A DNA stretch of 38,802 bases from Clostridia bacterium (GCA_017416885.1 JAFQAM010000197.1:1-38802); one strand, 5' to 3'; numbered from the stretch's first letter, positions 3,122 through 23,217 are shown. Notes: generated by a model from the letters alone, not told the origin. Translations and numbers: made by a program.

Positions 3122-3160
3122 AACCTTTTATATATCGATAAAATAGTTGAAATTGTTGTA

Positions 3161-3555: not shown

Positions 3556-3602
3556 TCAAGGTCTTTTGTTGTTAGTAGACAATAAAAACGCATCTATTCG
3601 TT

Positions 3603-3681
3603 AAAATTGAACCCATTTTTTGCGAAAAAATTGAACCTATTTTCTATAAAAATTGAACCCATTTTGCAAAATGAACCCATT
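3603..3681 (+). repeat. Four direct repeats of AAAATTGAACC(C/T)ATTTT
   Basis: Copies at 3603-3619, 3627-3643, 3649-3665 and 3668-3681 (the last is 1 nt shorter). Spacing is 24, 22 and 19 nt. Each copy is an AAAAT-N7-ATTTT imperfect palindrome. Confidence 0.8.
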
Positions 3682-3713
3682 AGGATTTTGTATCCTTTTC
3701 GTAGCCCTTTCAC

Positions 3714-3758
3714 AAAAAAGCCTCAAGATTGTATTCGATCTTGAGTCTTTTTTGTTTT
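3714..3758. terminator. Rho-independent terminator (A-run and T-run flanked, potentially bidirectional)
   Basis: aaaaaag, then stem ctcaagat/atcttgag with loop tgtattcg, then tcttttttgtttt. Confidence 0.75.
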
Positions 3759-3760
3759 AT

Positions 3761-3826
3761 CCGCCCTTAGCGGAATAAATCTACTTTCGTGGATGAAATC
3801 GCTAAAACGATGAAGTCATCCTGAGG
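3761..3826. repeat. Weaker mini-hairpin array D
   Basis: ccgc-cctta-gcgg, atctac-tttc-gtggat (one G.T pair), atcg-ctaaaa-cgat and cc-tga-gg, interleaved with the recurring spacer GGA(A/T)(T/G)AAATC / GATGAAGTC. Confidence 0.4.
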
Positions 3827-3892
3827 CAGTTTGTATTTGAATAATCCATACATCAGTCAGTCTGTTTGATTATTTCCTAATTACTGATTTTA

Positions 3893-3921
3893 TTGACTAT
3901 TTTTAGACTTTATGGTATAAT
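3893..3921 (+). promoter_or_regulatory. Sigma-A type promoter for the 3950 gene
   Basis: TTGACT (3893-3898), 17 nt, TATAAT (3916-3921), with TGG upstream. Confidence 0.65.
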
Positions 3922-3949
3922 TATTTAAATCATACGAATGGAGAAAAAT

Positions 3950-4840: not shown

Positions 4841-5899
4841 ATGAAAAACTTCGCATCTAATACCCTCGCCCCATCAAGCAATCAATTTTGGTTCTCAGGC
4901 GACGGCAAAATCCACAAGGGCAGAATATTCTACAAAATTTTCGCAGGCGGCAGCTACAATTATTCCTTTATGTTTACAAATATGATTGATAGCACCTTTA
5001 GCGATGGCACTCATTCACAAGCAAATTTAATTTGCGATGAATATCAAATTCATTCCTTAGGAATTTATGTAACCTCTGATTTTACTAACAATTTAGATAC
5101 TAACAACAAAATTCAATTAACCTTCAACGGCGAAAAATCCAAAACAGTTATTCCCAAGGAAATATTTTATACTGATGCAGTAAAGCTATCCTGTAACAAA
5201 AATGATTATATCTGCCTTGAAATAGAATTTTCAGGCAATGGCAAAATTCCGTATATGGAAGAAATGATGATACCGTCATTTGTTTTTGAAAACGGAAAAT
5301 GGATAGAAAGCAAAAAAACACCGCTATGCGCATCAATCCTATGCGATAGACCTGTTGAAAGGAAAGTCGGCTTTTTCGGTGACAGTATAACCGAGGGCAT
5401 TGGCGTTAGCAACAACTCATATAAATGGTGGTGCTCAAAAATTGCCGAAGAGGTTGGCGAAAAATATTCCTATTGGGATATCGGTATAGGCTTCGGCAGA
5501 GCACAGGATGCATCATCTAAAGGCTCATGGCTTGATAAAGCAAAATTACTTGATACAGTAACAGTATGCTTCGGTGTAAATGATATCTGTCAAGGCTTTA
5601 GCGAGGAAACCGTAAAAAATAGCCTATACACCATAGTCACCGAGTTAAAAAATGCAGGTGTAAGAGTTATCCTGTTTACAGTGCCACCTTTTGATTACGA
5701 TTTACAAAAGGAACAAATTTGGCGCAATGTAAATAACTACATTAAAAACGAGCTTTCAAAAATCGTTGAGGTTTTTGACACAGTCTCAATTTGGGGCTGC
5801 GAGCAACCAAATGACCATAGAGCAAAATACGGCGGACACCCAAATGAAGAGGGAAGCGCGCTTTTAGCAAGAGAATTCGTCTCAAAAATCAATTTATAG
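4841..5899 (+). CDS. SGNH/GDSL-family hydrolase with an N-terminal extra domain
   Basis: 352 aa. Block I is FFGDSITEG, block III is GVNDI, and a C-terminal GGHPNEEG block is present. Confidence 0.75.
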   Translation: MKNFASNTLAPSSNQFWFSGDGKIHKGRIFYKIFAGGSYNYSFMFTNMIDSTFSDGTHSQANLICDEYQIHSLGIYVTSDFTNNLDTNNKIQLTFNGEKSKTVIPKEIFYTDAVKLSCNKNDYICLEIEFSGNGKIPYMEEMMIPSFVFENGKWIESKKTPLCASILCDRPVERKVGFFGDSITEGIGVSNNSYKWWCSKIAEEVGEKYSYWDIGIGFGRAQDASSKGSWLDKAKLLDTVTVCFGVNDICQGFSEETVKNSLYTIVTELKNAGVRVILFTVPPFDYDLQKEQIWRNVNNYIKNELSKIVEVFDTVSIWGCEQPNDHRAKYGGHPNEEGSALLAREFVSKINL

Positions 5900-6402: not shown

Positions 6403-6422
6403 AGCTCCAACTCCTTTCGAAA

Positions 6423-7159
6423 TTATTTATCGTTATACTTTAATGATGATATGCCTTTTTTATTTAGTTTAAAAATTTTTTTATCAAGTATTTTTTTGAA
6501 AAACCTTTTAAAAATCCTCATATTTCCAAAAAGCCTTACTAAAGTTGGACTTATTAAATAGTATACCCTTACAAGCAATCTACCAAAAAGATTTTTTCTT
6601 AAAATGTTGTCTCTATATCGTCTTAATGTCCAAACCTCAGGACAGTCATATGAACCATATACACATGTTGCAATATAACATCCCTCTTTACTCATTTGTG
6701 ATTCTGAGCTTTTTCTTGGTGTATAATCTTCGTCATCATTATGAGAGTGAGTAATTCTCTTTGGGTAGCCATTTAAAATTGCTTCATTGATTTTTTTATC
6801 AATATAATCTTGGTTTACACCGTACTTTGTCCAAAAAGTAATAATACTAATTCCAGCCTCTTCGCATATTTCTTTAACCTTAATATCTCTTTTAATGCGA
6901 CTTGAATCATTGTGTGTAGGGTCATTAATTTCAATGAAAGCAACAGGCTTAAAGCTCGAGGTTAATATTAAAAAATCAATATTTCTAAATAGCTCATTAT
7001 GAAATTTCGAATTGTCAGTTCTATTAATGACACTTGCTAAATTAACCTGTGGCTGTAAATGATATCCGTCGGTAGTGCTTTAACAATTGCATTGTAATAT
7101 GATAACTCGGATTTTGTCATTAAGCTATCTTTTAGCTCATAAATAAATGTGTCGTTCAT
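6423..7159 (-). pseudogene. DUF2726 (restriction-endonuclease-like) protein with a Cys-rich C-terminal module, frameshifted
   Basis: The ATG at 7159 gives MNDTFIYELKDSLMTKSELSYYNAIVKALPTD..., which stops at 7037-7039. A second frame is open from about 7083 and reads TDGYHLQPQVNLASVINRTDNSKFHNELFRNIDFLILTSSFKPVAFIEINDPTHNDSSRIKRDIKVKEICEEAGISIITFW, the DUF2726 pattern. It runs uninterrupted into the track ORF 6423-6695 (MSKEGCYIATCVYGSYDCPEVWTLRRYRD...). The total length of 737 nt is not a multiple of 3. The shift must lie within about 7066-7082. Confidence 0.7.
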
Positions 7160-7212
7160 AAAGTATCCTTGATGTTTTTTTATATTTTAACATTTTATTA
7201 CAACAATGTCAA

Positions 7213-7250
7213 TAAAAAATCCCATAAGATATCTACCTTATGGGACATTT
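7213..7250 (-). terminator. Terminator of spoIVA
   Basis: Stem tcccataa/ttatggga with a 10-nt loop, followed on the minus strand by T6. Confidence 0.7.
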
Positions 7251-7252
7251 TA

Positions 7253-8719
7253 TTACAAAATTATACAAATCAAGCCGTTTGAGCCCTCGTTTATCACTCT
7301 TGACAGCGTATCAGATAGCTTCGCTCTTGACTCTTGAGAAATATGCTCTAATTTTGCGTGTAAGCCGTCATTTACAAGCTCATAAAGTGTCTTACCAAAC
7401 ATATTAGATTGCCATATCCTCTTTGGGTCATCCTCAAATTCCTCTAAAATGTACTTTATCATTTCCTGTGATCTCTCAGCCGTACCGACAATCGGATTGA
7501 TTTCCGTATCAATAGAAGCTCTTATCATATGAATTGACGGAGCAGAAGCCTTCAGCTTTACACCGTAAGCGCCTGCTTGCTTTACAATTTCAGGCTCCTC
7601 AAGAGTCATATCCTCATAATCGGGAAGCACAATTCCGTAACCGCTACTATTTACATCCTCAATCGCCTTAGCAAATTTGTCAAACTCAGCCTTCGCCTCA
7701 CTTAAAGACTTAATAGTAGTAAATAAATCCTCATCGTCATTTATTTCAATTCCGCTAAGCTCACTTATCACCTTGTAGTATAATTCCGGTAATAGCGAAA
7801 TATTAATATCTACCGTACCGTTTCCTAAATCACTTACCACCTCAGGCATATTCAAAATATTTTCATTTTCAAAAAGCGCTGTGGCAATACCGTTAATATC
7901 ATCAATTTTCGTTGCATTTAAAATTGAAGACTTGATTGAAGAAATTATGCTTTCCTTTAACCAATGATTACCATCTAAAGATGCAAAATATTTTGGCAAA
8001 TTGAATCTTAGCTCATTAATACCGAATTGACCTAATAAAAGCTTTAATATCCCCTCAAAATCCTCATTGTCAAGCTCAAGCGCATTTACCAAAGCAACAG
8101 GAGACTCATATTTCTTTTCAAGCTCAATTGCTAACTCCTGCGCCTTCTTTGACTGAGGCGAATTTGAATTTAAAACAATTACAAATGGCTTGTTAATCGC
8201 TTTTAGTTCATTAATAACTCTTTCTTCGCTTGCTACATATGCTGCGCGCTCAATCTCACCGATTGTTCCGTCAGTAGTTACCACAACACCAACAGTGGAA
8301 TGGTCCTTGATGACCTTTTTGGTACCAAGCTCCCCTGCCTTTTCAAACTCCATAGGCTCACTGTCCCAAGGAGTCATAACCATTCTGCTTTCGCCATTTT
8401 CCGTAGCGCCGATAGCGCCGTCAACCATATAGCCAACACAGTCAATCAGTCTGACTCTCATCTTTGATGAGCCAATACAAACAGAAACCGCCTCATCAGG
8501 AATAAATTTAGGCTCAGTTGTCATAATAGTTTTGCCCGAGGCGCTTTGCGGAGTCTCATCCTTTGCCCTTTCCTTGTCGTATTCCGACTCGATATTAGGC
8601 AAAACAACATTGTCCATAAACTTTTTAACAAAGGTTGATTTTCCACTTCTCACAGGACCGACAACACCTAAATATATTTCGCCGTTAGTCCTTTTTGCGA
8701 TATCATCATAAATATTCAT
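7253..8719 (-). CDS. spoIVA: Stage IV sporulation protein A (spore-coat morphogenetic ATPase)
   Basis: 488 aa. MNIYDDIAKRTNGEIYLGVVGPVRSGKSTFVKKFM contains the Walker A motif at the expected position, and similarity to SpoIVA runs the whole length. Confidence 0.92.
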   Translation of the reverse strand: MNIYDDIAKRTNGEIYLGVVGPVRSGKSTFVKKFMDNVVLPNIESEYDKERAKDETPQSASGKTIMTTEPKFIPDEAVSVCIGSSKMRVRLIDCVGYMVDGAIGATENGESRMVMTPWDSEPMEFEKAGELGTKKVIKDHSTVGVVVTTDGTIGEIERAAYVASEERVINELKAINKPFVIVLNSNSPQSKKAQELAIELEKKYESPVALVNALELDNEDFEGILKLLLGQFGINELRFNLPKYFASLDGNHWLKESIISSIKSSILNATKIDDINGIATALFENENILNMPEVVSDLGNGTVDINISLLPELYYKVISELSGIEINDDEDLFTTIKSLSEAKAEFDKFAKAIEDVNSSGYGIVLPDYEDMTLEEPEIVKQAGAYGVKLKASAPSIHMIRASIDTEINPIVGTAERSQEMIKYILEEFEDDPKRIWQSNMFGKTLYELVNDGLHAKLEHISQESRAKLSDTLSRVINEGSNGLICIIL

Positions 8720-9788: not shown

Positions 9789-10874
9789 ATGAAGGATTTC
9801 GATAAAAGAGTTAACAGCACCGTAATTGACGGACATTTACATATTGAGGGCATCTACAATAATAAAGGAGAGCACTTTCTGAACGGCTTTGAGGAATACC
9901 GCAATACCAAGGGATTAAAAAGATTGAACATTGCAGCGCTTCCGTCAGGCAAAAGAGATGTAGCCAATAATATCTTATGCGCATTTTATAAGTTAGCGCA
10001 TCCTCAGGACTTTGCTCACGGTGGACTCACATTTAAGGAATATCCCGTTAATCCCAACGAAAAAACAGATATGTCTCCACTAACACAATATAAGGAGCTA
10101 ATGGAAATAGGCTTTGACGGAATTAAGCTGTTAGAGGGCAAGCCGCAGGTACATAAGGTGCTCGGTATTCCGCTGTGCCATGAATATTTTGACGAATTTT
10201 ATGATGCAATAGAAAAGGACGGCACGCACCTTTTATTTCATGTAAACGATCCCGAGGAATTCTGGGATCCCGATAAAGCAAGCGAGGAAATCAAAAAGTT
10301 AGGCTGGTTCTACGGAGACGGCACCTACGCCTCAAACGAGGAGGTTTATCGCCAGATTTATGCGATTTTAGATAAGCATCCAAATTTAAAGGTAACCTTT
10401 GCCCATTTCTTTTTCTATTCCAAGCAACCCCAAAAGCTTGAAGCTTTATTCGAAAAATATCCCAACGCCTGTGTAGATGTAACACCGGGCGGAGAAATGT
10501 TTGTTTCATTTAGCGAAAATCCCGAATACTATAAGGAGTTTTTCAAAAAATATAGCAATAGAGTGCTTTTAGGCACAGATAGCACATTCCCATATAGCGC
10601 TGATGATATGATGTGGATTTGCGATAGAGTATATCGCTATTTTGCCACAACAGATACACTAAAAAGCTTTAACGGTTGCGAAATAACAGGCATTGATTTA
10701 CCAAACGAATTTAGAGAAAATATTTTCCATAAAAATTTTGAAAACAGAGTAGGCGCAGAGCCTAAGAAAATCAACAAGGAAGCATTAAAGCGCTATATCG
10801 AAAAATATAAGCACCTGATCAAGGAAAAGGACTACCTTGAGGAGATAGAAAGGCTGACAAAAGAGCTATTATAA
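9789..10874 (+). CDS. Amidohydrolase-family (TIM-barrel metal-dependent) hydrolase
   Basis: 361 aa. It has an N-terminal IDGHLHIEG metal-binding motif and a later FHVND / GTDS pattern. A GGAGG RBS is present. Confidence 0.6.
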   Translation: MKDFDKRVNSTVIDGHLHIEGIYNNKGEHFLNGFEEYRNTKGLKRLNIAALPSGKRDVANNILCAFYKLAHPQDFAHGGLTFKEYPVNPNEKTDMSPLTQYKELMEIGFDGIKLLEGKPQVHKVLGIPLCHEYFDEFYDAIEKDGTHLLFHVNDPEEFWDPDKASEEIKKLGWFYGDGTYASNEEVYRQIYAILDKHPNLKVTFAHFFFYSKQPQKLEALFEKYPNACVDVTPGGEMFVSFSENPEYYKEFFKKYSNRVLLGTDSTFPYSADDMMWICDRVYRYFATTDTLKSFNGCEITGIDLPNEFRENIFHKNFENRVGAEPKKINKEALKRYIEKYKHLIKEKDYLEEIERLTKELL

Positions 10875-12316: not shown

Positions 12317-12431
12317 ATATATACACGCGCTGCGTGATTCCATACAAACTAAGGTTGATTACATACACACCTGCGGCGTGATTGTGGCAAAGCTGCAACC
12401 CTACATCCTATCCCCTATATCCTATAATATC
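12317..12431. repeat. Mini-hairpin tandem array C
   Basis: There are three 21-23 nt units of the form ATACA-hairpin-GATT: atacaCACGC-gct-GCGTGatt, catacAAAC-taa-GGTTGatt and acatacaCACC-tgc-GGCGTGatt. These are followed by ttgtggc-aaa-gctgcaa (a 7-bp stem with two G.T pairs) and then C/T-rich CCTAT(A)ATCC repeats that run into a TATAAT at 12423-12428. Confidence 0.6.
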
Positions 12432-12453: not shown

Positions 12454-13017
12454 ATGAATGTATTTGACTTTGACGGAACTATCTATGACGGTGATAGCTC
12501 CTCACACTTTTATTTTTATTGCTTAAAGCATTATCCAAAAACAAGAAAGCTTTTATTCCGCACTATATGGTACGGTATTGGCTTCGGCTTAAAAATTGTC
12601 AAAAAGAAAACCTTCAAGCAAAAGCTATTCAGCTTTGTTTCAAAAATAGATGACCTTGATAAGGCTGTTTTGGATTTTTGGCAATCCCACGAAAAAAACA
12701 TAAAAAAATTCTATCTTGATATGAAGCAGCCAACCGATATTATAATCTCAGCATCCCCCGAATTTCTTTTAAAGCCGATTTGCGACAAATTAGGCGTTAC
12801 AGTAATGGCAACCAAGGTAGATAAAAAAACAGGACTTTTTGACGGCGAAAACTGTCACGGTCAAGAAAAGGTAAGACGATTCTATGAGCTTTATCCCGAT
12901 GCTGAAATAGACGAGTTTTATTCCGACCTCTATTGCGATACCCCTCTCGCTCGCCTCGCGAAAAAAGCCTACATCGTCAAGGGCGAAAAGCTCTCCCCTT
13001 GGAAAAAATACAAATAA
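12454..13017 (+). CDS. HAD-superfamily hydrolase (subfamily IB-like)
   Basis: 187 aa. It carries the N-terminal FDFDGTIYDGDS motif I. A GGAG RBS is present. Confidence 0.75.
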   Translation: MNVFDFDGTIYDGDSSSHFYFYCLKHYPKTRKLLFRTIWYGIGFGLKIVKKKTFKQKLFSFVSKIDDLDKAVLDFWQSHEKNIKKFYLDMKQPTDIIISASPEFLLKPICDKLGVTVMATKVDKKTGLFDGENCHGQEKVRRFYELYPDAEIDEFYSDLYCDTPLARLAKKAYIVKGEKLSPWKKYK

Positions 13018-13022
13018 TTCTC

Positions 13023-13128
13023 ATTTTGCGAAGCAAAATATATCGAAATTTACGAAGTAAATTATATCGAAAATCGCTTGCGATTTATATCGAATTTGCG
13101 TAGCAAATATATCGACACACATAGTGTG
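13023..13128. repeat. Mini-hairpin tandem array B (clearest example)
   Basis: Five perfect palindromes are present: attttgc-GAA-gcaaaat, aatttac-GAA-gtaaatt, aaatcgc-tt-gcgattt, atttgc-GTA-gcaaat and cacac-ATA-gtgtg. They are separated by the invariant spacer ATATCGA (4 copies), with a period of 22-24 nt. Confidence 0.85.
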
Positions 13129-13135
13129 CTATAAT

Positions 13136-13171
13136 AAAAACCTTCAAGGAAACGCACCTTGAAGGTTTTTT
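13136..13171. terminator. Bidirectional terminator (HAD gene and convergent XRE gene)
   Basis: aaaaa, then stem ccttcaagg/ccttgaagg with loop aaacgca, then tttttt. Confidence 0.85.
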
Positions 13172-13179
13172 GTGTAAAT

Positions 13180-13428
13180 TTAATCATCAATATCAAGTAT
13201 TTTATAAGCCTTAATTCCCAACGCCTTAGCAATAGTAAAAATCGCCTTAACAGACGGACAATACGGCAAATTTGGACTTTCAAGCTGACTTATATAAGAG
13301 AGCGTAAGTCCTGTGTTTTCTGCAAGCTCAGCCTGTGTCATTCCCGCCTTGCGCCTATAATATCCTATTTTTATACCTATATCTAAAAGAATTCCTTTAT
13401 ATTCATTTTCACTTAGCATTGTCATCAT
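13180..13428 (-). CDS. XRE-family helix-turn-helix transcriptional regulator
   Basis: 82 aa. IGYYRRKAGMTQAELAENTGLTLSYISQLE is a canonical HTH_3 (Cro/C1-type) motif. Confidence 0.85.
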   Translation of the reverse strand: MMTMLSENEYKGILLDIGIKIGYYRRKAGMTQAELAENTGLTLSYISQLESPNLPYCPSVKAIFTIAKALGIKAYKILDIDD

Positions 13429-13461
13429 CCTTACCTTTTTGTTTAATATTATTATATCCTA

Positions 13462-13519
13462 TTGCAAAACAAAAATAAATGTGATACAATTGAGTAAAGA
13501 CTCACTAAAATTGAGTAAA
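13462..13519 (+). promoter_or_regulatory. Promoter plus direct-repeat operator candidate for the zinc-ribbon/SPFH operon
   Basis: TTGCAA (13462-13467), 17 nt, TACAAT (13485-13490), with TGA upstream. AATTGAGTAAA occurs twice (13489-13499 and 13509-13519, 20-bp phasing), overlapping the -10/+1 region. The inverted repeat tgagt/actca lies between the two copies. Confidence 0.5.
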
Positions 13520-13556
13520 CACACAACGATATTAATACTATAAAAGGAGAGTATGC

Positions 13557-14378
13557 ATGGCATTTTGTGTAAATTGTGGAGAAAATTTACAAAATGGCGC
13601 AAAATTCTGCGCAAGCTGCGGCACGCCTGTAAATCAAAACGCTTCAGCAAACAACGAAAGAAAAGCTATATATGATGGTGAAATCCACAAATGTCCCAAT
13701 TGTGGCGAAGCCTTAAAATCATTTGAGACTATCTGCCCAACCTGTCAATTTGAACTAAGAGGAACAAAAGGTTCAAACTCGGTAAAGGAATTAGCGGATA
13801 AATTAGAGAAATCAACATCAGAAAATCAAAAAATTACAATCATCAAAAACTATCCTATCCCAAACACCAAAGAAGACATATTTGAATTTATGTTCTTAGC
13901 ATATTCGAATTTTGATGCTAAATATTATGCAGAACATCAAGATGTCGAAGATATATCTGATGCTTGGTTAGCTAAGGTAGAACAATGCTATCAAAAGGCA
14001 AAATTTTTGTTACATAAAAATGAAATTCAAAAAATAGAAGAAATGTATATGAAAATAAAAGGTGATATTCAAATTGTCAATAAAAAAGATTCAAAAAGAA
14101 ACATTGCTTCTATTATTATGATAATAATAGGACTTTTGATTATGACACCTTTGCCACCAATAGGCGTGGTATTGTTAATTTGTGGTATTGTTAGAATTGT
14201 TAAAAAAAGCAAAAAAATTAATTCAAATAACAACAAGGCTATAAATCACAATTATGCTAATACTGTACAAACGAAAACAGGCTTTTCAACATGGAGCACA
14301 ACCGCAAAGATTTTATGGATAATTTTAAATATTTATACTTTAGGAATTCCAGCAATAATTTATGCGTGTAGCAAATAA
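13557..14378 (+). CDS. Double zinc-ribbon protein with a helical middle domain and C-terminal TM segments
   Basis: 273 aa. CVNCG..CASCG and CPNCG..CPTCQ form two zinc ribbons. A conserved block IIKNYPIPNTKEDIFEFMFLAYSNFD follows. There are two C-terminal hydrophobic helices. Confidence 0.7.
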   Translation: MAFCVNCGENLQNGAKFCASCGTPVNQNASANNERKAIYDGEIHKCPNCGEALKSFETICPTCQFELRGTKGSNSVKELADKLEKSTSENQKITIIKNYPIPNTKEDIFEFMFLAYSNFDAKYYAEHQDVEDISDAWLAKVEQCYQKAKFLLHKNEIQKIEEMYMKIKGDIQIVNKKDSKRNIASIIMIIIGLLIMTPLPPIGVVLLICGIVRIVKKSKKINSNNNKAINHNYANTVQTKTGFSTWSTTAKILWIILNIYTLGIPAIIYACSK

Positions 14379-14393
14379 AAGGAGATGAAACAA

Positions 14394-15152
14394 ATGGCAT
14401 TTTTTGATTCTTTAAAAAACATAATAAAAGCCGTACAACCTCAACAAAACTCAAGTAATAATAACGCACAAGGAGCTTGCTCGTTTTGCTCAAATTGTGG
14501 AATGAGGTTAGAAAGCAACGCAAAATTTTGTAGTGGTTGTGGCTCTTTTGTTGTTGGTATGGTTACGAATATACCAAATAAGGTTACTACGAATGAATTA
14601 TCTGAAACTTATTCTAACGGACGACAACAAGAGTATGTCGGCACTGTGTTAAAATGTTCAAATTGCGGATGCAACATTACACAGACTACAGCCATCTGTC
14701 CAGAATGTGGGATAAGAATTACAGGACAAGCCGCTGTTGGATCAGTTTTATCGTTTAAGGATCAACTAATGACCTTAGAAAGCGGTCGTAAAAAAGGATT
14801 TGGTGGAATTTTATTAGGCACACACTGTCCTGCAGATCCTGTAGATGTACAAAAACTAACATTAATCAGAAATTTTCCTGTACCTAATTCAATAGATGAT
14901 ATACTTGAATTTATGATGTTAGCGGTTGCAAATATCGATGTAAGCTTGTCAAAAAAATCTTGGACTAATAGAACTTCAAATAATGGAATAGAAACCGTTG
15001 CCACCATAGCAAAGGCAATTAGTAATGCATGGGTATCAAAAATGCAACAAATATATCAAAAAGCAGAAATTATATTTCCTAATGATCCTACATTTAAGCA
15101 AATTCAAAAAATATATTTTAGTAAAATGAAAGAATTAAAAATTAAAGTTTAA
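14394..15152 (+). CDS. Double zinc-ribbon protein, soluble paralogue of the preceding gene
   Basis: CSNCG..CSGCG and CSNCG..CPECG form two zinc ribbons. It shares LIRNFPVPNSIDDILEFMMLAVANID and AWVSKMQQIYQKAE with the upstream protein. The track start at 14385 directly abuts the AAAGGAG, so the ATG at 14394 has better spacing. Confidence 0.7.
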   Translation: MAFFDSLKNIIKAVQPQQNSSNNNAQGACSFCSNCGMRLESNAKFCSGCGSFVVGMVTNIPNKVTTNELSETYSNGRQQEYVGTVLKCSNCGCNITQTTAICPECGIRITGQAAVGSVLSFKDQLMTLESGRKKGFGGILLGTHCPADPVDVQKLTLIRNFPVPNSIDDILEFMMLAVANIDVSLSKKSWTNRTSNNGIETVATIAKAISNAWVSKMQQIYQKAEIIFPNDPTFKQIQKIYFSKMKELKIKV

Positions 15153-15174
15153 TTACAAATAAAAGGAGCTAATT

Positions 15175-16458
15175 ATGGGACTTTTCAAAAAGAAAACAGG
15201 CATCTTTGCCGATGTTATTCGTTGTGATGAGACATCATATTTAATATGGAAATGGCATCCAAACGGAACTAAAGAAGGCGAAACTGAAAGAGAAAATTCA
15301 ATAAGATGGGGCTCATCCTTGCGTGTAAAGGATGTCGAGGTAGCGGTATTTGTTTATAAGCAAAAAAACGGAACAATGCAAGATTACATTGTAGGCCCAT
15401 ATGACGAGAAAATTAAAACCTCAAACTTTCCTGTATTGTCGGGAATTTTAGGTGCCTTTATGGGAGGTGATACTCCTTTCCAAGCTGAGATTTATTTTAT
15501 CAATTTAGCAGAAATAATTCAAACTAAATTTGCTGTACCTTATTTTGATGTATTTGATAATCGTTATCCGGAATTTTCCGTTCCTGTTGCAGTAAGAGGA
15601 ACAATTAGCTTCAGAATAGATGATTACGAGTATTTTATAAAGTTACATAGACTTAATACCTTTAATATAGATGACTTTTACTCACAAATTAAGCACGCGG
15701 TTAGCAGATATGTAAAAAGCATAGTTACGAATATACCAACAATAGAGAATATTCCGGTTATCCAATTGGAAAACAAAACCGCAATAATAAACGATTCTGT
15801 AGAAAAAGATATCTCAAAAAGATTGCAAGGTCAATTCGGTGTAGAAGTCACTGGCGTTGATATAGGTGTAATTGATATTGATAAAACAAGTGTTGGATAT
15901 AACAAGCTTATGTCGATAACAAGAGAGATAACAATAGCAAAAACTGCCGCGGATCTTGAAAATTATGAGGAAACATTGCGTATTCAAAGAGAAGAAGGAC
16001 AATATGCAATGCATAAGCAAACGCAAAGCACAAATCTAAATGCTTTTCAAATTGAAAAGCAAGCAGAGGTTGGTATAGCCGGCGCTGATGCGCTTGGAAA
16101 AATGGGAGCAAATAACGCAGGCAATATTGATTTGGGAAATAACAGTGGATTTAATCCTGTGCAGATGATGGCAGGAATGGCTTTAGGCGGTGCAGTGGGA
16201 CAAAATATTGCAACCGTAATGAACGGCACAATGTATGGCGGAACAGCCTCAGCGCCGCCGCCTATTCCAACAAGAGCATATAATGTTGCTGTGAATGGAA
16301 CCGCAACAGGTCCTTATGATGTTGTAAGACTTACTCAAATGGCGCAAGCAGGCGAGCTTTTGCCGGATAGCTTGGTTTGGACACAAGGAATGGCAACATG
16401 GCAAAAGGCAGAAGAAATTAACGAGCTAAAGGGGATTTTTCCACCGCCAATAATATAA
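15175..16458 (+). CDS. SPFH/Band-7 family protein (COG4260, YdjI-like) with a C-terminal GYF_2 domain
   Basis: 427 aa. The N-terminus MGLFKKKTGIFADVIRCDETSYLIWKWHP is typical of the YdjI / virion-core-protein-like SPFH group. A Gly/Ala/Met-rich linker follows. The C-terminal YNVAVNGTATGPYDVVRLTQMAQAGELLPDSLVWTQGMATWQKAEEINELKGIF fits GYF_2 (DUF4339). Confidence 0.75.
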   Translation: MGLFKKKTGIFADVIRCDETSYLIWKWHPNGTKEGETERENSIRWGSSLRVKDVEVAVFVYKQKNGTMQDYIVGPYDEKIKTSNFPVLSGILGAFMGGDTPFQAEIYFINLAEIIQTKFAVPYFDVFDNRYPEFSVPVAVRGTISFRIDDYEYFIKLHRLNTFNIDDFYSQIKHAVSRYVKSIVTNIPTIENIPVIQLENKTAIINDSVEKDISKRLQGQFGVEVTGVDIGVIDIDKTSVGYNKLMSITREITIAKTAADLENYEETLRIQREEGQYAMHKQTQSTNLNAFQIEKQAEVGIAGADALGKMGANNAGNIDLGNNSGFNPVQMMAGMALGGAVGQNIATVMNGTMYGGTASAPPPIPTRAYNVAVNGTATGPYDVVRLTQMAQAGELLPDSLVWTQGMATWQKAEEINELKGIFPPPII

Positions 16459-16460
16459 AC

Positions 16461-16495
16461 AAAAATACTGTTGCGCGCGCAACAGTATTTTTATT
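16461..16495. terminator. Bidirectional terminator between the SPFH gene and phoR
   Basis: aaaaatactgttgcgc/gcgcaacagtattttt forms a 13-bp perfect palindrome flanked by an A-run and a T-run. Confidence 0.85.
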
Positions 16496-16508
16496 TTGAA
16501 AGCTTTTG

Positions 16509-18209
16509 TTATTTATTAAATTTGATTTCAACAGTAGTACCAATACCAATATCACTGTCAATTTTTAATTCAGCGTTGTATAATGCACAAATATGCTTTA
16601 CAATTGCAAGACCTAAGCCTGTGCCGCCTGTTTTTTTGGAGCGGGATTTATCCACTCTGTAAAATCTCTCGCAAAGCCTTGGCAAATGCTCCTTTTCAAT
16701 GCCGATACCGCTATCCTTAACAGTAAGAGTAACGGAATAGTCGTCATCCTTTATCGAAATCAGAATACTTCCGTTTTCCTTGTTGTAGTTAATTGCATTT
16801 GAGGCAAGATTTTGTATAAGCTCGAAAACCTTTTTAGGGTCGCCGTTTATTATGCCATTCCCCTCAATTTTTAAGCTTATATTCTTTTTGTTTATCTCCT
16901 CGCTTAATTCACTGAATATTTCTTCGGCGGTTTGCCTTAAATCAACAGGGATAAAGACCGTATCAATCAGCTCGCCCTGTTCCAGTCTGCTTAGCTTCAG
17001 CATATCGGAAATCAAAGACGATAAGCGAAGGCTTTCCTTGTGTATTCTTTCAATCTGCTTTTTTGCGCCCTCATCAATATCCTTCTCAAGCAATACCTCA
17101 GATAATCCTCGCATAACGGTAATAGGTGTTTTCAACTCGTGAGAAGCATTAGCAAAGAAATCGCTTTTTTGCTTGGATACTGTCTTTTCCTGCGTTATAT
17201 CTGTGATTATTAAAATTGATGAAATATTGTCTGAAAGGGAAGAGTCTGTTATTTTCTGTATTACAACCGATAAATCCCTGTTGTTATAGTGATGCTCAAA
17301 GAAATAGCTTTCATCAATGTGCTTTAAAATTTCATTGTATAGCTCTAAATCATCAATTAAGTAAATCAGATTTTTGATATCATCGCATTTTGCGCAGTTG
17401 AAAATTTCAAGAGCGCTTTTATTTACAAAAACAAGCTTTTTTTCTTGATTGATAGCAATGATTCCCTGCGAAACATTGTCAAGCACAGTGTTCAGCTTTT
17501 TATGCTCTTGCATTATAAGACTGATATGCGCGTGAATGCTTGCATTAAGCTCATTTATTTCACCAAGCACAGAGTAAATCTCAGGCTCGCTGGAATCGGT
17601 GCTCAAAGGCTCATATTTTCCGTCGTTCAGGCTCCTTAAGCTTTTGCCGATATCTGTAACCTTAGAGGAAATATTCTTTGATAGAATATTAGACATAACG
17701 AATGAAATTATTATAGATATAATCAAAACCACAATTAAAAGCGGCAGTGTTACATTTATGTATGATGAAATCTCACTGCTTTTGATAGCCAAACGGACAA
17801 TAATATCCGTTCCGTCATAAAGAGTGGATTTTATAGCATAATAAGTCATTTTGCATTTGAAGGTGTCAGAATATCTCTCTATTGTTTTAGGAGAATCAGA
17901 CAATGCATTTTTAATTTCCTCTCTGTTTGCGTGATTGTCCAAAGGAGCATTTGTGTCACTTTCATATAAAACATTGCCGTCCTTATCAAAAACAGTAATA
18001 CGGAATTCATCCTTACTCGCATAACGGGACAGCTTATCGAAATCCTGCTTGCTTGCAATCAGCGAGCAAGCAAGCTCGGTTTCACTGATTAATTGATTTT
18101 TAATCATATTCTTAGTGCTGAGATTAACAGCAATAATGCTGAAAGTGAACATTAAAAGAGTAGAAATCAGAGTAACAAGGAAAAATCTTAAAAACAGCTT
18201 CTTTTTCAT
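16509..18209 (-). CDS. phoR: Phosphate-regulon sensor histidine kinase (PhoR-type)
   Basis: 566 aa. It has two TM helices flanking an extracytoplasmic domain of about 130 aa, a HAMP region, a PAS-like region, an H-box (FFANASHELKTPIT) and N/G boxes (GGTGLGLAIVKH). It is the last gene of the pst-pho operon. Confidence 0.8.
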   Translation of the reverse strand: MKKKLFLRFFLVTLISTLLMFTFSIIAVNLSTKNMIKNQLISETELACSLIASKQDFDKLSRYASKDEFRITVFDKDGNVLYESDTNAPLDNHANREEIKNALSDSPKTIERYSDTFKCKMTYYAIKSTLYDGTDIIVRLAIKSSEISSYINVTLPLLIVVLIISIIISFVMSNILSKNISSKVTDIGKSLRSLNDGKYEPLSTDSSEPEIYSVLGEINELNASIHAHISLIMQEHKKLNTVLDNVSQGIIAINQEKKLVFVNKSALEIFNCAKCDDIKNLIYLIDDLELYNEILKHIDESYFFEHHYNNRDLSVVIQKITDSSLSDNISSILIITDITQEKTVSKQKSDFFANASHELKTPITVMRGLSEVLLEKDIDEGAKKQIERIHKESLRLSSLISDMLKLSRLEQGELIDTVFIPVDLRQTAEEIFSELSEEINKKNISLKIEGNGIINGDPKKVFELIQNLASNAINYNKENGSILISIKDDDYSVTLTVKDSGIGIEKEHLPRLCERFYRVDKSRSKKTGGTGLGLAIVKHICALYNAELKIDSDIGIGTTVEIKFNK

Positions 18210-18871
18210 TTGTTTTCATAGCGATAGCCGATACCTCTGACGGTAACGATACAGTCGCTTCCCCCGGCCTCCTTTATTTTATCGCGCAAGGTTGCAATAT
18301 GCATATCAAGCGTTCTTGTTTCACCTATGAAGCTTTCACCCCATACCTCTCTGAAAAGCGTCTCTCTTTCGACAGTTACACCCGAATTGCTTATAAGCAT
18401 TTTTAAAAGCTTGAATTCCTTCAAGGTAAGCATTAAATCCTTATCCTTGTAAAAAATCTTGTAAACATTATTATCAATTACAAAGCCGTCAGCATTTGTA
18501 ATATATAAATTAGCGCGCCTTAAATTGGTTTTCACTCTTGCAATCAATTCAAGAATAGAGAAGGGCTTTGCCATATAATCGTCCGCGCCCTTGTTAAGCC
18601 CCTTTACAAAGCTTATTTCATCGGTTTTTGCGCTAACAATAATAACGGGTATTTTCTCATCAAGCTCCCTTATTTTAGTTAAAATAGTGTATCCGTCCAT
18701 ATCGGGGAGCATTATATCAAGAATAATAAGATTAGGCCTTGATTTTTCAAATTCATTAAGAAAATCCTTACCGTTTTCAAACATTCTGATTTTATAAAGC
18801 CCATCAAATGCGCCTTCATAAACCTCACGAATGCCTTCATCATCCTCTACAATGTAAATTAAAGACTCCAT
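18206..18871 (-). CDS. phoP: OmpR-family response regulator (PhoP/PhoB-type)
   Basis: 221 aa. The receiver domain has DLIILDIMLPDMDG, and the C-terminal winged helix has TVRGIGYR. It overlaps phoR by 4 nt. Confidence 0.8.
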   Translation of the reverse strand: MESLIYIVEDDEGIREVYEGAFDGLYKIRMFENGKDFLNEFEKSRPNLIILDIMLPDMDGYTILTKIRELDEKIPVIIVSAKTDEISFVKGLNKGADDYMAKPFSILELIARVKTNLRRANLYITNADGFVIDNNVYKIFYKDKDLMLTLKEFKLLKMLISNSGVTVERETLFREVWGESFIGETRTLDMHIATLRDKIKEAGGSDCIVTVRGIGYRYENK

Positions 18872-19524
18872 CAGTATTTTAAATGTACTCCTGTCTCATT
18901 ATATTTTGTCCACTCTGCAACATTTACAGCGTGGTCGCCAATTCTTTCAAGATATTTTGCTACCATCATAAGAGTAATTGCTTGCTCAGCATTGCTGCTA
19001 TCCTTTCTGATAAGCTCAATAAGCTCATTTTGTACTGTTACAAATAGCTCATCCATTTCATCATCAAGGCTAATTACAGTATCAGCTAAATTCTCATCAT
19101 TTTTTATAAATGAATTGACACTTTCCCGTACCATCTTAATAGCCAAATTTCCCATAGCTGTAATGTGCGTCAGCTTTTTAATGTATCTTTCGCCCGGCAT
19201 GGTATATACAAGATCTCCAATATCGCTTGCTTGATCGCCGAATCTTTCAATATCGGTAATCATCTTTAACGCGCAGGAAACCTCACGAAAGTCTCTCGCC
19301 ACAGGCTGTTGCTTCAGAAGAATACGCATGCATCTTTTTTCAATGCTCATTTCATATTCGTCAACAAGCTTGTCAGTTTGAGCAATGCTTTTACCTAAAT
19401 CTCTGTTCATTTGCAATAAAGCAGTGATAGCATCGCTAATCATTTGCTCTGTAAGACGGCACATTTCAACCAGCTGTGTCTTTAAATTCTGTAATTCCTC
19501 TTCAAATATTTTTCTAATTGACAT
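18871..19524 (-). CDS. phoU: Phosphate signalling complex protein PhoU
   Basis: 217 aa with two PhoU repeats (ERIGDHAVNVAEW, ERFGDQASDIGD). Confidence 0.9.
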   Translation of the reverse strand: MSIRKIFEEELQNLKTQLVEMCRLTEQMISDAITALLQMNRDLGKSIAQTDKLVDEYEMSIEKRCMRILLKQQPVARDFREVSCALKMITDIERFGDQASDIGDLVYTMPGERYIKKLTHITAMGNLAIKMVRESVNSFIKNDENLADTVISLDDEMDELFVTVQNELIELIRKDSSNAEQAITLMMVAKYLERIGDHAVNVAEWTKYNETGVHLKY

Positions 19525-19560
19525 TTTATATCTCCATTATACAATATTTTTTATTAAAAA

Positions 19561-20331
19561 TCAACCAAATCTGCCGGTAATATATCTTTCTGTTCTTTCA
19601 TCCCCGGGCGATGAAAAAATATCATCTGTTGCTCCGTACTCAATTAACTCTCCAAGCAAGAAAAAAGCGGTATTATCTGCAATTCTTGTTGCCTGCTGCA
19701 TATTGTGCGTAACTATAACAATAGTTAAATCCTTTTTCAGTTCTTCCATCAGTTCTTCGATTTTGCCCGTTGAGATCGGATCAAGGGCAGATGTAGGCTC
19801 ATCCATTAAAAGTATTTTAGGATTAGCGGCAAGCGAACGGGCAATACATAGCCTTTGCTGTTGACCGCCGCTCATTCCAAGAGCGCTCTTTTTAAGCCTG
19901 TCCTTTACCTCGTCCCAAATGCTTGCGCGTCGAAGCGAATTCTCAACAATTTCATCAAGCTCGCTTCTTTTTTTGATTCCGAAGGTTCTCGGAGCAAAGG
20001 CGATATTGTCATAAATGCTCATAGGAAATGGATTTGGCTTTTGAAACACCATGCCAACATTTTTTCTTAAGGCATTAATATCTGTTTCCTTATCGAAAAT
20101 ATCAATATTTCCAATCTTGAAGCTTCCTGTAATCTTACAATCCTCAACCAAATCATTCATTCTGTTTAATATCTTTAAAAAGGTAGATTTACCGCAGCCG
20201 GACGGTCCTATTAAAGCAGTTACTTGCTTTTCGGGGATTTCAATATTTATATTTTTCAAAGCGTGAAAATCACCGTAGTAAAGATTGCAGTCCTTAACTG
20301 ATATATTCATTTTACCTGTAAAGTCAATCAT
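19561..20331 (-). CDS. pstB: Phosphate ABC transporter ATP-binding protein PstB
   Basis: 256 aa. Walker A is GPSGCGKST, the signature is [13 protein letters not shown], and Walker B is [12 protein letters not shown]. The PstB-typical N-terminus [12 protein letters not shown] is present. Confidence 0.92.
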
Positions 20332-21155
20332 TTTTCTTCTCCTGTCGATTTTTTAATTAATTTTCCGATACCGCTTGCAAGCAAATTTAAGAAAATAACA
20401 AATACAAGCAATACAACCGATGTGGCTGCAGCTTCATCTCTGTAACCGTTGCTTGCAAAATAGTAAATATCAAGTGCAAGGCTTGTACCCGGTGATAATA
20501 GGTTTTGCGGAACCTTATTTACAACCATTCCGATTGTTAATATAAGTACCGCGCTTTCTGATACAACACGCCCGATTGCAAGAATGATAGCGGTAACGAT
20601 ACCGCCCGAGGCTGATGGCAATACGATTTTAAAAATGGTTCTGACCTTACTTGCGCCTAACGCATAAGATCCTTCCCGAAGTCCGCCTTGAACCGAAAGC
20701 AGGCTTTCCTGTGTGGAACGCACAATAGTCGGTAAAATCATAATTGCAAGAGTAATTCCGCCGCCAATAATTGAATATCCCCAACCAAACGCAACAACGA
20801 ATATTAAATATCCGAACAAGCCGTAAACAATACTCGGAATACCCGCAAGTGTTTCAGTAGCAACCTGAATAATCCGCACAAGCTTTCCTTTATTATTTGT
20901 GTATTCAACTAAGAAAATAGCGCTTGCAACACCGATAGGTACAGCAATTAATGAAGCAATAGCCACAAGCTCAAGCATACCGACAAACGCAGGCAAAATG
21001 GAAGGCGAGCTTTTATAATCGCCAAATAACAAATCAAATGATAGCTTTCCCGTGCCTTTTATTAAAACATAAGCAATAACTGCAACAAGACAAATAAGAG
21101 TAATCCCCAATGCGACAAGACAAATTATTTTAAGTGCTGAATAAAGCTTTCTCAT
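20328..21155 (-). CDS. pstA: Phosphate ABC transporter permease PstA
   Basis: 275 aa, 6 TM helices with an EAA-type loop ([20 protein letters not shown]). It holds the second permease position of the operon. Confidence 0.85.
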
Positions 21156-22057
21156 TTTTTTGATTCCTTTTTCTTAATTTTGTCGTTTTTTTCTCTTTTA
21201 AGCAGAGAAAAGCTTATATTTAAAAGCAAGGTAAATACAAATAGAACAACACCCGTCGCTATAAGAGCAGACAAAGCATCTCCGCGAAGCTCCATAGCTC
21301 CCATAGCAATATTGGCAGTCAGTGTTCTCACGCTTTGGAACAGACTGTTTGGCATTTCGGGACTGCCACCGATTACCATAATTACCGCCATTGTTTCACC
21401 GATAGCGCGACCAATCGCGAGTACAACACCTGCTAAAATACCGCTTTTAGCAGACGGAACAAGTATCTTAAATGTCGCTTGCTCTTTAGTGGCGCCTAAA
21501 GCCAAAGCACCCTCATAATATGAGCTTGGCACGCTGTTTAGGCTATCTAAGCTTACACTTACAATAGTAGGTAAAATCATAATTCCAAGAACCAATGAGG
21601 CAGAAAAAATTCCATAACCAACTCCATTTGGCGAAATATAGTCTCTTACAAAGGGAACTATAACAGTCATACCGAATAGACCAAATATAACCGATGGAAT
21701 ACCTGCAAGTAAATTTATCATTTGCCTTATGGGATTAACTAATTTTTTAGGGCAAAACTTATATAACGCAATAGCGGTAAGAAGTCCTATGCCAACGCCT
21801 ATTATAACGGATAATGCGGTAACATAAAGCGTAGTTACAATCATAGGAAATATGCCGTACGCTATCTCATCCGCTAAGGGCGCCCATTTCATAACGAAAA
21901 CAAATTCAAAAAATCCTGTTTTTGCAATAAACGGCGTGCCGCTTATGAATAGAAATACAGTAATTGTGGCTAAAGCCAGAATAGAGAAGATAGCGCAGAA
22001 AAGAAATACGAAACGCATTCCTTTTTCTTTAAGATTAATAAAAGTTGAACTTTTCAT
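21152..22057 (-). CDS. pstC: Phosphate ABC transporter permease PstC
   Basis: 301 aa with an EAA-type loop (EGALALGATKEQATFKILVP). It is the first permease after pstS. Confidence 0.85.
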   Translation of the reverse strand: MKSSTFINLKEKGMRFVFLFCAIFSILALATITVFLFISGTPFIAKTGFFEFVFVMKWAPLADEIAYGIFPMIVTTLYVTALSVIIGVGIGLLTAIALYKFCPKKLVNPIRQMINLLAGIPSVIFGLFGMTVIVPFVRDYISPNGVGYGIFSASLVLGIMILPTIVSVSLDSLNSVPSSYYEGALALGATKEQATFKILVPSAKSGILAGVVLAIGRAIGETMAVIMVIGGSPEMPNSLFQSVRTLTANIAMGAMELRGDALSALIATGVVLFVFTLLLNISFSLLKREKNDKIKKKESKK

Positions 22058-22058
22058 A

Positions 22059-22928
22059 TTATTTAGTTACTTGCGCCCAAACGGTAATGGCTTTTTCGCC
22101 TGCATCAACATCGTAAATCTTTTTTAAATCCTCTGAAGAAATATTATTATAGGTATTTTTATTATTTACGATAATTGCAATGCCATCCTTAGCAACCTCA
22201 TAATAGGTACAATTCGGAGATTTTTCAGAATTAAACGCTTCTGAAATCATACCGAAATCAGTAACGCCGTTTTCTGCATCATTATAGCCTGTACCGCTTC
22301 CGCCACCTGCAACGCTTACGCTTACACTACTTTGAATTTCCTCAAATTTAGTAGCAAGCTTTTCCATAAGAGGCTTTAAGGATGTACTGCCCGAAATTGT
22401 AATTTCACCGCTTAAGCTTGGAATAACAGTATAAGGAACAGTATTTTCTCTTGTGGAAACATATCCGTTTTCGCTTATAATTGATTGAGCATCGGAGCTT
22501 TGCAGGAAAGCGAGAAAAGCAGCGTTAACCTCTGAAGCAACTCTATTTTCCTGATAAACTATATTTAAAGGTCTTGAAATTTTGTATGAACCGTCCTTAA
22601 TGGTAGCAATTGTTGGCATAACGCCGTCAACAGATAAAATTTTAACATCGCTTGTGACATAGCCTAAGCTATCATAGCCGATTGCTAAAGGATTGCTTTC
22701 AACCTCTTGTAAAACCGATGCTGTGTTTGAAGCAACGATTACACCTGAAATATCAGATTTTCCTTTAAGACCGATAATTTCCATAAAAGCAGATTTTGTT
22801 CCGCTTCCGTCCTCACGGGTAACAACACTGATAATTTTTGCTTCATCAAAGCTTCCGCCGCAGGAAGTAAGAATAAAAGCAGAGCATAAAACAACAGTTA
22901 GTAAAATAAGTGCGATTAATTTTTTCAT
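22059..22928 (-). CDS. pstS: Phosphate ABC transporter substrate-binding lipoprotein PstS
   Basis: 289 aa. It has a lipoprotein signal (LTSCGG) and a PBP-like_2 pattern (REDGSGT..., GSTSL). Confidence 0.85.
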   Translation of the reverse strand: MKKLIALILLTVVLCSAFILTSCGGSFDEAKIISVVTREDGSGTKSAFMEIIGLKGKSDISGVIVASNTASVLQEVESNPLAIGYDSLGYVTSDVKILSVDGVMPTIATIKDGSYKISRPLNIVYQENRVASEVNAAFLAFLQSSDAQSIISENGYVSTRENTVPYTVIPSLSGEITISGSTSLKPLMEKLATKFEEIQSSVSVSVAGGGSGTGYNDAENGVTDFGMISEAFNSEKSPNCTYYEVAKDGIAIIVNNKNTYNNISSEDLKKIYDVDAGEKAITVWAQVTK

Positions 22929-22989
22929 TTTCTTTTCTCCTTCTTCTGTAAGCTTTTTGCTTACGCACTTATTTTACCTCAATCTTAAA

Positions 22990-23025
22990 ATCATAACTAC
23001 CAAATCAATGTTTAGATTATGTAAA
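22990..23025 (-). promoter_or_regulatory. Candidate Pho-box promoter of the pst operon
   Basis: The minus strand reads TTTACA-taatc-TAAACA-ttgat-TTGGTA-gt-TATGAT. These are hexamers of the TT(A/T/C)ACA type spaced by 5 nt, in place of a -35, followed by a -10-like TATGAT. Confidence 0.45.
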
Positions 23026-23040
23026 TTTAAGGTAAAAGAA

Positions 23041-23104: not shown

Positions 23105-23217
23105 TTTACTTGATGACATGTGCAGTTGAGTTAAAAACATGCTACATCTTGTGAAATTGATTAAAATTAATGAATAAGTAGATTTTACATTGTAATAAAA
23201 TTTTATTACAATAGTTT

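Follow-up and report, generated by a model that had tools for sequence, protein, structure and literature searches.

A tandem mini-hairpin array in the 3' UTR of a HAD-family hydrolase gene from a gut Clostridia bacterium is a half-array of the repeat family that includes the orphan motif Gut-1

REP and BIME elements are clustered extragenic palindromes with short conserved linkers, which are dispersed and polymorphic in enterobacteria and pseudomonads and are associated with RAYT transposases. REP sequences are often found 3' of a stop codon and ahead of the terminator, and they stabilise the mRNA upstream of them. The Gut-1 motif (Rfam RF01706) consists of three hairpins joined by GUGAAAU; its authors reported no more than its occurrence in human-gut metagenomes and rated it as a likely non-coding RNA (Weinberg 2010, PMC2864571). 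No follow-up work on Gut-1 since 2010 was found in the literature searched, and it has been an orphan motif since that time. At the level of DNA, d(GCGAAGC), d(cGNAg) and d(cGNNAg) are known as hyperstable mini-hairpins, which are physicochemical motifs and not a genetic element, and no natural arrays of which are described in these papers (PMC13037366, PMC3201870). DGR targets depend on a DNA hairpin that is strand-specific, has a GRNA loop and lies just 3' of the stop codon; Avd, a nucleic-acid-associated protein, is a partner of the reverse transcriptase (RT) of DGRs (PMC3240598, PMC10053308). In addition, perfect hairpins are known to arise and to be maintained by template switching (PMC8794818).

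Here, we have analyzed a stretch of 38,802 nucleotides from a Clostridia bacterium (hereafter the window), which carries a SpoIVA gene and whose host is an uncultured spore-forming Clostridium-class bacterium from gut samples. An earlier note on this DNA had described a tandem array of five perfect mini-hairpins with an invariant ATATCGA spacer in the 3' UTR of a HAD gene. Direct reading of 13023-13128 confirmed the five perfect hairpins, the identity of the linker in all four copies and the location between the stop codon (13017) and the terminator. The parts of the locus are as follows:

12454-13017, + strand: HAD-family hydrolase gene (HAD gene; PF12710), stop codon TAA at 13015-13017
13023-13039, + strand: hairpin 1, attttgc-GAA-gcaaaat, core GCGAAGC (direct reading and folds)
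13040-13046, + strand: linker ATATCGA, copy 1 (direct reading and motif count)
13047-13063, + strand: hairpin 2, aatttac-GAA-gtaaatt, two compensated pairs apart from hairpin 1
13064-13070, + strand: linker ATATCGA, copy 2 (direct reading and motif count)
13071-13086, + strand: hairpin 3, aaatcgc-TT-gcgattt (direct reading)
13087-13093, + strand: linker ATATCGA, copy 3 (direct reading and motif count)
13094-13108, + strand: hairpin 4, atttgc-GTA-gcaaat, containing GCGTAGC (direct reading)
13109-13115, + strand: linker ATATCGA, copy 4 (direct reading and motif count)
13116-13128, + strand: hairpin 5, cacac-ATA-gtgtg (direct reading)
13136-13170, both strands: bidirectional intrinsic terminator with a 14-bp stem (13136-49/13157-70), an A run before it and a T run after it
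13180-13428, - strand: convergent HTH_3 gene (XRE-type HTH repressor), sharing the terminator with the HAD gene

The core GCGAAGC was found exactly as announced for unit 1. The window contains 10 copies of ATATCGA, four of which, those of the array, lie within 76 nt, and a single, isolated copy of TCGATAT (8589-8595). A detector that required at least three identical 7-mers at a spacing of 17-32 nt, with every gap being a flush perfect hairpin, found 13040-13115 and 2559-2603 in the window and no such array in any of 500 dinucleotide-preserving shuffles. A generic detector of hairpin chains (stems of at least 4 bp) performed no better than shuffles (59 chains versus 40). With regard to the proposal that the stems are related by compensatory changes, this was true of units 1, 2 and 4, whereas the stems of units 3 and 5 are unlike these. 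When two-unit arrays were aligned with MAFFT, the result was not consistent with the structure.

CRISPR, which the earlier note had already dismissed, resembles the array in the regular alternation of constant and variable segments; however, the constant part is 7 nt long and the variable part is a self-complementary stretch of 11-20 nt, as opposed to repeats of ∼21-48 nt with non-palindromic spacers, and Pfam scans of the window revealed no Cas domains. Tandem intrinsic terminators were also rejected, as the combination of a stem and a T run is present at 13136-13170 only and is absent from the array hairpins; the sole array hairpin listed in the terminator scan was a weak match (13129-13115, - strand). 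Between hairpin 5 and the terminator, 13127-13135 reads TGcTATAAT, a perfect extended -10 motif, for which neither a -35 box nor a downstream gene was seen and which is probably a chance occurrence.

Rfam at gathering thresholds reported tRNA only and no Gut-1. When cmscan was run in E-value mode, the Gut-1 model matched the - strand of the array (13013-13095) over its full length (model 1-77 of 77) with 23.3 bits (E = 0.07 in 1.1 kb and 0.012 in 191 nt), the Rfam gathering score being 50 bits. On the - strand of 2554-2626, it reached 34.8 bits, also at full length and below the gathering score of 50. Other full-length, sub-threshold matches of 30-42 bits were found in L200, L132, L215, L305 and L306; the highest score in the sample was 41.9 bits (L200), and no array reached 50 bits or more. 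The seed sequences of Gut-1 contain GYGAUAU linkers, a centre such as UGCCUGCGGCA...GAAUAUA and a mirrored half with AUAUCAC linkers. Gut-1 and the array share tandem short hairpins with variable stems, an invariant 7-nt linker (GUGAAAU/GUGAUAU in Gut-1) and an origin from uncultured gut bacteria. Measured against the Gut-1 definition of at least three tandem hairpins with a RUGAWAU-type 7-nt linker, the array has five hairpins and four UCGAUAU linkers on the - strand, and both the window and its relatives derive from Clostridia/Eubacteriales MAGs of animal and human gut origin. It differs in the first two bases of the linker, which are off the consensus, and in having one half only. The array is firmly identified as a below-threshold variant of the described but unexplained Gut-1 motif. 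The earlier claim that it matches no described element therefore fails, because Gut-1, with the same architecture and mirrored GYGAUAU/AUAUCAC seed arrays, already describes the family in one variant, a finding which the note itself had named as decisive against novelty.

The other sites named in the earlier note proved to be real arrays with other linkers. These arrays and related features in the window are:

2384-2404, + strand: hairpin gccgttgc-GAAAA-gcagcggc in the tRNA-Leu leader (comparison with L003)
2540-2727, + strand: complete mirrored array, with the best Gut-1 match of the window (- strand)
2774-3121, + strand: PF05635/TIGR02436 four-helix-bundle (Avd-like) gene, directly 3' of the mirrored array
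3760-3826, + strand: half-array that closes the PF05635 cassette on its 3' side; linkers ATAAATC / TGAAATC (Gut-1-type linker)
12317-12400, + strand: sister array with linkers GATTCCATAC / GATTACATAC, upstream of the HAD promoter

The array at 2540-2727 comprises four hairpins with three (C/T)ATATCAT linkers, a centre and then four hairpins with ATGATAT linkers, and a long-range helix pairs CATTGCGAAAG with CTTTCGCAATG. Homologues of the half-array at 3760-3826 in L305 and L306 gave Gut-1 scores of 40.6 and 34.5 bits, respectively. The array at 12317-12400 is missing in L003.

The array at 13023-13128 belongs to a family of modular mini-hairpin repeats and represents a solo half-array; Gut-1 is the only described representative of this family. 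The repeat unit is a 7-nt linker, AT[A/T]TC[A/G]N, followed by a perfect palindrome, which spans precisely the distance to the following linker. In the complete element, a short centre is preceded by a half-array with NYGAWAT linkers and followed by its mirrored counterpart with ATWTCRN linkers, that is, [NCGATAT-hairpin] x3-4, centre, [ATATCGN-hairpin] x3-4, in which the centre is a hairpin such as gcgCTGCGgcgc plus GGATTTATATC. A long-range helix from the centre to the outermost hairpin encloses one half of complete elements; in window-type arrays, six of its 11 pairs were changed on both sides and none on one side. The array downstream of the HAD gene is of the right type only and abuts the stop codon, and it has no mirrored second half. 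Polarity of linkers and loops is uniform within a half and flips together in the mirrored half. Because hairpin polarity is thus tied to the linker, the units are oriented objects. Rfam describes Gut-1 as a three-hairpin sRNA, and the mirrored half, the link to PF05635, the DNA-type loops and the turnover of hairpins are not described there; the loci analyzed here show it as one half of a larger mirrored element and the family as having several linker families across Clostridia and phages.

In a comparison set of 61 loci orthologous for the HAD gene, arrays with the same linker were found at non-orthologous places in other species (ATATCGA in L013 and GATTCCATAC in L031), together with arrays of the linkers AATTCATG (L004 and L019) and CATCA (L050, a Christensenella MAG). 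Pattern scans of viral and metagenome sequences for three ATATCGA copies gave at least 120 matches, mostly unrelated tandem repeats, and a flush-palindrome filter was needed before they became useful. With this filter, arrays were found, among the matches listed, in IMG/VR phage contigs (L074, L080 and L082/L132) and metagenome contigs (L200, L204, L215, L225, L229, L254 and L259); L318 and L328 also carry them. Related arrays elsewhere, which the earlier note had set as a test, therefore exist, in other genomes as well as in phage contigs and metagenomes. When the element centre was added to make the pattern stricter, viral contigs gave no matches, and no promoter could be established inside element centres. 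Across loci, recurrence was limited to the linkers and a few stems; for example, the stem of hairpin 4 (ATTTGC/GCAAAT) recurs between ATATCGA linkers with the loop GGA in L074/L172 and GA in L225. Linkers and architecture are conserved from Clostridia of 35% GC to phage contigs of 59% GC. Members of the family are scattered over intergenic junctions in uncultured gut Clostridia and in their phages, and presence varies between close relatives. Arrays lie upstream of promoters, in 5' UTRs, between cistrons and in 3' UTRs, and their position is not tied to one transcript role.

Loops and stems were evaluated on the strand with the ATWTCR linker for 99 unique hairpins. GNA accounted for 28 of the 48 triloops and TNC for one, and 18 of the 37 tetraloops were GNNA, just two of which were GNRA. 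The tetraloop classes that are stable in RNA are GNRA and UNCG. The closing pair was 5'C:G3' in 83 of the 99 hairpins. The array follows the same loop and closing-pair rules as the hyperstable DNA mini-hairpins (PMC13037366, PMC3201870), with GCGAAGC in unit 1 and GCGTAGC in unit 4. Among 567 stem pairs, 10 were not Watson-Crick, including 3 G·T and 3 A·C, and thus no RNA-type tolerance of G·U was seen on either strand. In alignment A2, seven pairs were changed on both sides and none on one side. Folded as DNA, 13023-13128 was more stable than its shuffles (z = -4.5 on the + strand and -4.8 on the - strand; none of 200 shuffles was as stable), whereas its RNA folds were not (z = -1.4 and -1.6). 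Based on the loop statistics and the absent excess of G·U, the hairpins look like DNA objects, and these features, all taken from sequence, appear to be more in keeping with a palindromic repeat at the DNA level than with a dedicated RNA. For the same reasons, the suggestion that structure is conserved and sequence is not, as in RNA-type covariation, could not be upheld, as DNA palindromes fit better. It should be noted that 'covariation' in such repeats need not imply a functional RNA.

A functional RNA would be one whose hairpins stop exonucleases of both directions (3'-5' and 5'-3') and whose AU-rich linkers are cut by endonucleases, so that the 3' end of the HAD mRNA is protected, or in which the array is a stand-alone sRNA. 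The location between stop codon and terminator agrees with such a role, for which REP sequences are a precedent, and a mirrored design would work on either transcribed strand. Moreover, many arrays are intercistronic or precede a ribosome-binding site by 5-20 nt, which leaves no room for a promoter (L132, L215, L225, L328 and, upstream of a capsid gene, L080), an orthologous array is retained between phage late genes, and Gut-1 itself was rated a likely RNA (Weinberg 2010, PMC2864571). However, the pairs show neither a G·U excess nor one-sided changes, the loops are GNA/GNNA and not GNRA/UNCG, and the RNA folds are no more stable than shuffles. In addition, the arrays at 2540-2727, at 12317-12400 and in L335 lie downstream of a terminator and upstream of the promoter of the adjacent gene, and should be poorly transcribed because of this placement. 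We consider a functional RNA somewhat doubtful.

The hairpins turn over rapidly. In L200, three elements are near-identical over ∼200 nt, and two hairpins have been replaced wholesale (agc-GAA-gct by gtc-GCA-gac); the copies occur scattered in either orientation. Where PF05635 proteins are identical, the arrays upstream of them have different hairpin sets and different loops; one stem, cacgc/gcgtg, carries the loops GTCA, GTTA, CTTA, ATCA or GCCA. The 17 nt that form the loop and the 3' arm of the tRNA-Leu leader hairpin (2384-2404) are missing in L003, which matches the expectation for a fold-back copy of adjacent sequence. The L080 element opens with a hairpin that repeats the target sequence in inverted form, and an 18-nt direct repeat flanks this element. 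Comparison of orthologous intergenic regions, as the earlier note had proposed, revealed a AATTCATG array directly 3' of the HAD stop in L004, before a terminator orthologous to that of the window, and no array after the HAD stop in L003, L032, L033 and L005.

On the basis of these results, we favor, at about an even chance, a DNA-level palindromic repeat that is perfected by fold-back, spreads at gene boundaries and travels as a co-transcribed passenger of the HAD 3' UTR, with an effect that is generic and REP-like at most. Hyperstable d(cGNAg)/d(cGNNAg) mini-hairpins would form on one defined strand when the DNA is single-stranded, and intrastrand fold-back or template-switch copying, and not selection at the RNA level, would create the hairpins and keep them perfect. 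Such copying would account for the perfect stems, for the double 'compensatory' changes without one-sided intermediates, for the loops as the fastest-mutating part and for the new hairpins made from neighbouring sequence. At gene boundaries, and notably in company with PF05635 cassettes and phage modules, arrays would be selfish or neutral passengers that spread and are turned over, and the half-array at 13023-13128 would be a remnant upstream of the HAD terminator. The likely effect at this locus would be just that of generic stable hairpins on a transcript end, as with REP sequences. Thus, the array most likely is a passively co-transcribed repeat remnant in the HAD 3' UTR.

Two syntenic phages with 49-82% amino-acid identity both keep an orthologous array between the scaffold and capsid genes, in which the stems differ by compensated changes and all linkers are GCGATAT in one phage (L080) and TCGATAT in the other (L132). 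Retention in phages and the wide conservation of linkers suggest selection for function and not pure drift, and the concerted linker change within an array hints at a trans-acting reader. Together, conserved linkers, concerted change and phage retention argue for some trans-acting reader and are the main weakness of the passive model.

One candidate reader is the Avd-like protein. A mirrored array was found directly upstream of every PF05635/TIGR02436 gene examined (window 2774-3121; L304-L317; L225 and L229; L318 and L327; L328 and L332; L335 and L340), and the proteins are just 40% identical between subclades and differ in their linker families. In ∼0.8 Mb of array-bearing, cassette-free relatives, no PF05635 gene lacking an array was present. 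The passive model leaves this strict link unexplained. The arrays might thus be the cis partner of PF05635 proteins (Avd-like, pentameric four-helix bundles), which would bind linker plus hairpin as single-stranded DNA or RNA; by analogy with REP/RAYT, 13023-13128 would be an extra site, and an RT encoded elsewhere may be involved. We regard this as unlikely. Known systems offer a parallel, as Avd acts with the DGR RT and a strand-specific GRNA DNA hairpin is present at DGR targets (PMC3240598, PMC10053308). The array resembles the DGR target in a DNA hairpin with a G..A loop 3' of a stop codon and in a stem whose sequence is free while pairing is required (PMC3240598), and also in the genetic association with an Avd-family protein. 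On the other hand, the DGR target is a single GC-rich stem of 7-10 bp with a GRNA tetraloop, beside a VR/TR pair and an RT (PMC3240598), whereas the loci here are arrays with mostly triloops; at 13023-13128 the loops are GAA, GAA, TT, GTA and ATA and the stems are A/T-rich. Genes for RT, HUH enzymes and integrases were all absent from the window, and no RT gene was called within 2-3 kb of any PF05635 cassette. It also counts against a PF05635 partner that ∼20 of the 24 arrays found independently of the protein have no PF05635 gene nearby, nor does 13023-13128, and that several linker families coexist in one genome. Furthermore, to our knowledge PF05635 has no sequence-specific binding or catalytic activity.

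PF05635 homologues number in the thousands and are mostly on contigs of <2 kb, which resembles multi-copy mobile DNA. No match to the PF05635 cassette was obtained by BLAST in phage and plasmid collections, and PADLOC assigned no defence system to PF05635 or to the genes 3' of it. The cassette at 2495-3940 of the window has the order terminator, array, promoter, PF05635 gene, variable ORF2, 17-mer repeats, terminator and second array. Cassettes in the window, L304, L305, L306, L309, L311, L314 and L317 begin exactly after the CCA of stable-RNA genes (tRNA-Val, Ala, Ser, Leu and tmRNA); L003 and L033 have the same tRNA-Leu gene without a cassette, inverted and without an encoded CCA. ORF2 in the window (3119-3560) is a frameshifted copy of an intact 149-aa membrane protein of L314, and other cassettes have an unrelated 157-aa Cys-rich ORF2; neither type has a match in Pfam, NCBIfam or PADLOC. 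Between ORF2 and the terminator lie direct 17-mer repeats, which differ in kind from the hairpin arrays (AAAATTGAACCCATTTT, four constant copies at 3603-3665 of the window; ATTTATACTACTTTTGGTC at 3820-3870 of L304).

A broader proposal is that Gut-1-type arrays and PF05635 genes form one unrecognised system, in which a non-HUH protein would act with single-stranded mini-hairpin arrays that are made or rewritten in situ by fold-back or RT-type synthesis, a non-coding diversification resembling that of DGRs; the cassettes would insert precisely at the CCA ends of tRNA and tmRNA genes, possibly via tRNA-primed cDNA, and 13023-13128 would be one dispersed site. We put this forward with little confidence. 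In any case, Gut-1-type hairpins seem, by their sequences, to obey the stability rules of DNA and not those of RNA and to turn over unusually fast, and one clade of Avd-like proteins is always array-attached among the genes examined, some of them in cassettes right after tRNA or tmRNA genes. This unexplained alignment leads to testable hypotheses on protein binding, single-stranded DNA structure and template-switch mutagenesis.

The passive repeat proposed above shares with REP/BIME elements the clustered, dispersed and polymorphic palindromes, the short linkers and a repeat-flanked associated gene. It would also be conceivable, as for REP/BIME, that an HUH enzyme encoded elsewhere (RAYT or IS200/IS605 TnpA) cuts the linker beside single-stranded hairpins and thereby mobilises the arrays. 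The units are oriented (a linker with a strand-specific loop) and the hairpins are of DNA type; copies are dispersed in both orientations, their presence varies between relatives, and L005 has an IS200/IS605-like TnpA ORF with a hairpin at the corresponding site 3' of the HAD gene. The hairpins that RAYT and TnpA recognise are defined ones, in contrast with the variable stems of the arrays. REP stems are conserved in sequence, whereas here the linker is conserved and the five stems differ; REP palindromes alternate in orientation, whereas successive palindromes here lack the BIME-type alternation and keep one polarity per half. The associated gene encodes a four-helix-bundle protein and not an HUH transposase, no RAYT (Y1/HUH) gene was found among the proteins of the 38.8-kb window, and gene calls beside the PF05635-linked arrays gave no HUH gene either. 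The duplications at the flanks, which are irregular as well as long and measure 18 nt in L080 and 67 nt or more in L004, also speak against such an enzyme. Mobilisation by HUH cleavage is therefore quite improbable.

The neighbouring XRE-type HTH repressor gene (13180-13428) raises the question of an operator array, for which lambda OR1-3 would be the analogue: the dyads are 17 bp long with 7-bp spacers and a spacing of 23-24 bp. However, operators would show the opposite pattern to the invariant spacers and variable dyads seen here, the array is situated past both the terminator and the 3' end of the HTH gene, and the same arrays occur in many unrelated contexts with no HTH gene. We consider an operator hardly credible.

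Several further observations concern the surroundings of the arrays. The site downstream of the HAD gene is a hot spot for small insertions. In L005, the TnpA ORF (...HTKWNCKYHIVFAPKYRR...; ∼10700-10830) directly follows the HAD terminator and is preceded by the hairpin cacgcga-TAG-tcgcgtg. In L004, a partial second HAD 3' end (2965-3031), 82% identical to window 12935-13001, follows the array and terminator; judging from this sequence, the insertion appears to have duplicated the end of its target gene. The 13.2 kb of the window at 13018-26233 contain HTH, zinc-ribbon and SPFH genes and a pst/phoU/phoRB operon, and L003, L032, L033 and L005 have a homologue of window 26234 onward within ∼50 nt 3' of the HAD gene. 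The terminator at 16459-16508 of the window matches the one 3' of the HAD gene in L003. An attL/attR pair of an integrated island was rejected for this segment, since no TCGATAT half is found near 26233, pst/pho genes are present and there is no integrase. Elsewhere in the window, a frameshifted pseudogene (6696-7252), whose translation by eye resembles a DUF2726-type nuclease-fold protein, lies in a region (6417-7183) with no BLAST match in L003.

In the terminase-portal spacer of phages, L080 (1428-1640) has a hairpin array with its halves in opposite order, and the related L132 (3400-3560) has mirrored simple repeats, AATTAAAAATT... and AATTCTCAAC..., in the same spacer. Finally, a two-hairpin motif with no Rfam match, composed of CTCCCTT-gtgtaa-AGGGAG, a second hairpin and GAGGGATTG, adjoins arrays in L004 (2050-2110 and 2785-2835), L033 (9900-9960), L031 (18880-18950) and L074 (∼5080-5130). 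In L033, this motif is inserted in the 5' end of the HAD gene, where the ribosome-binding site and the first seven codons are duplicated.
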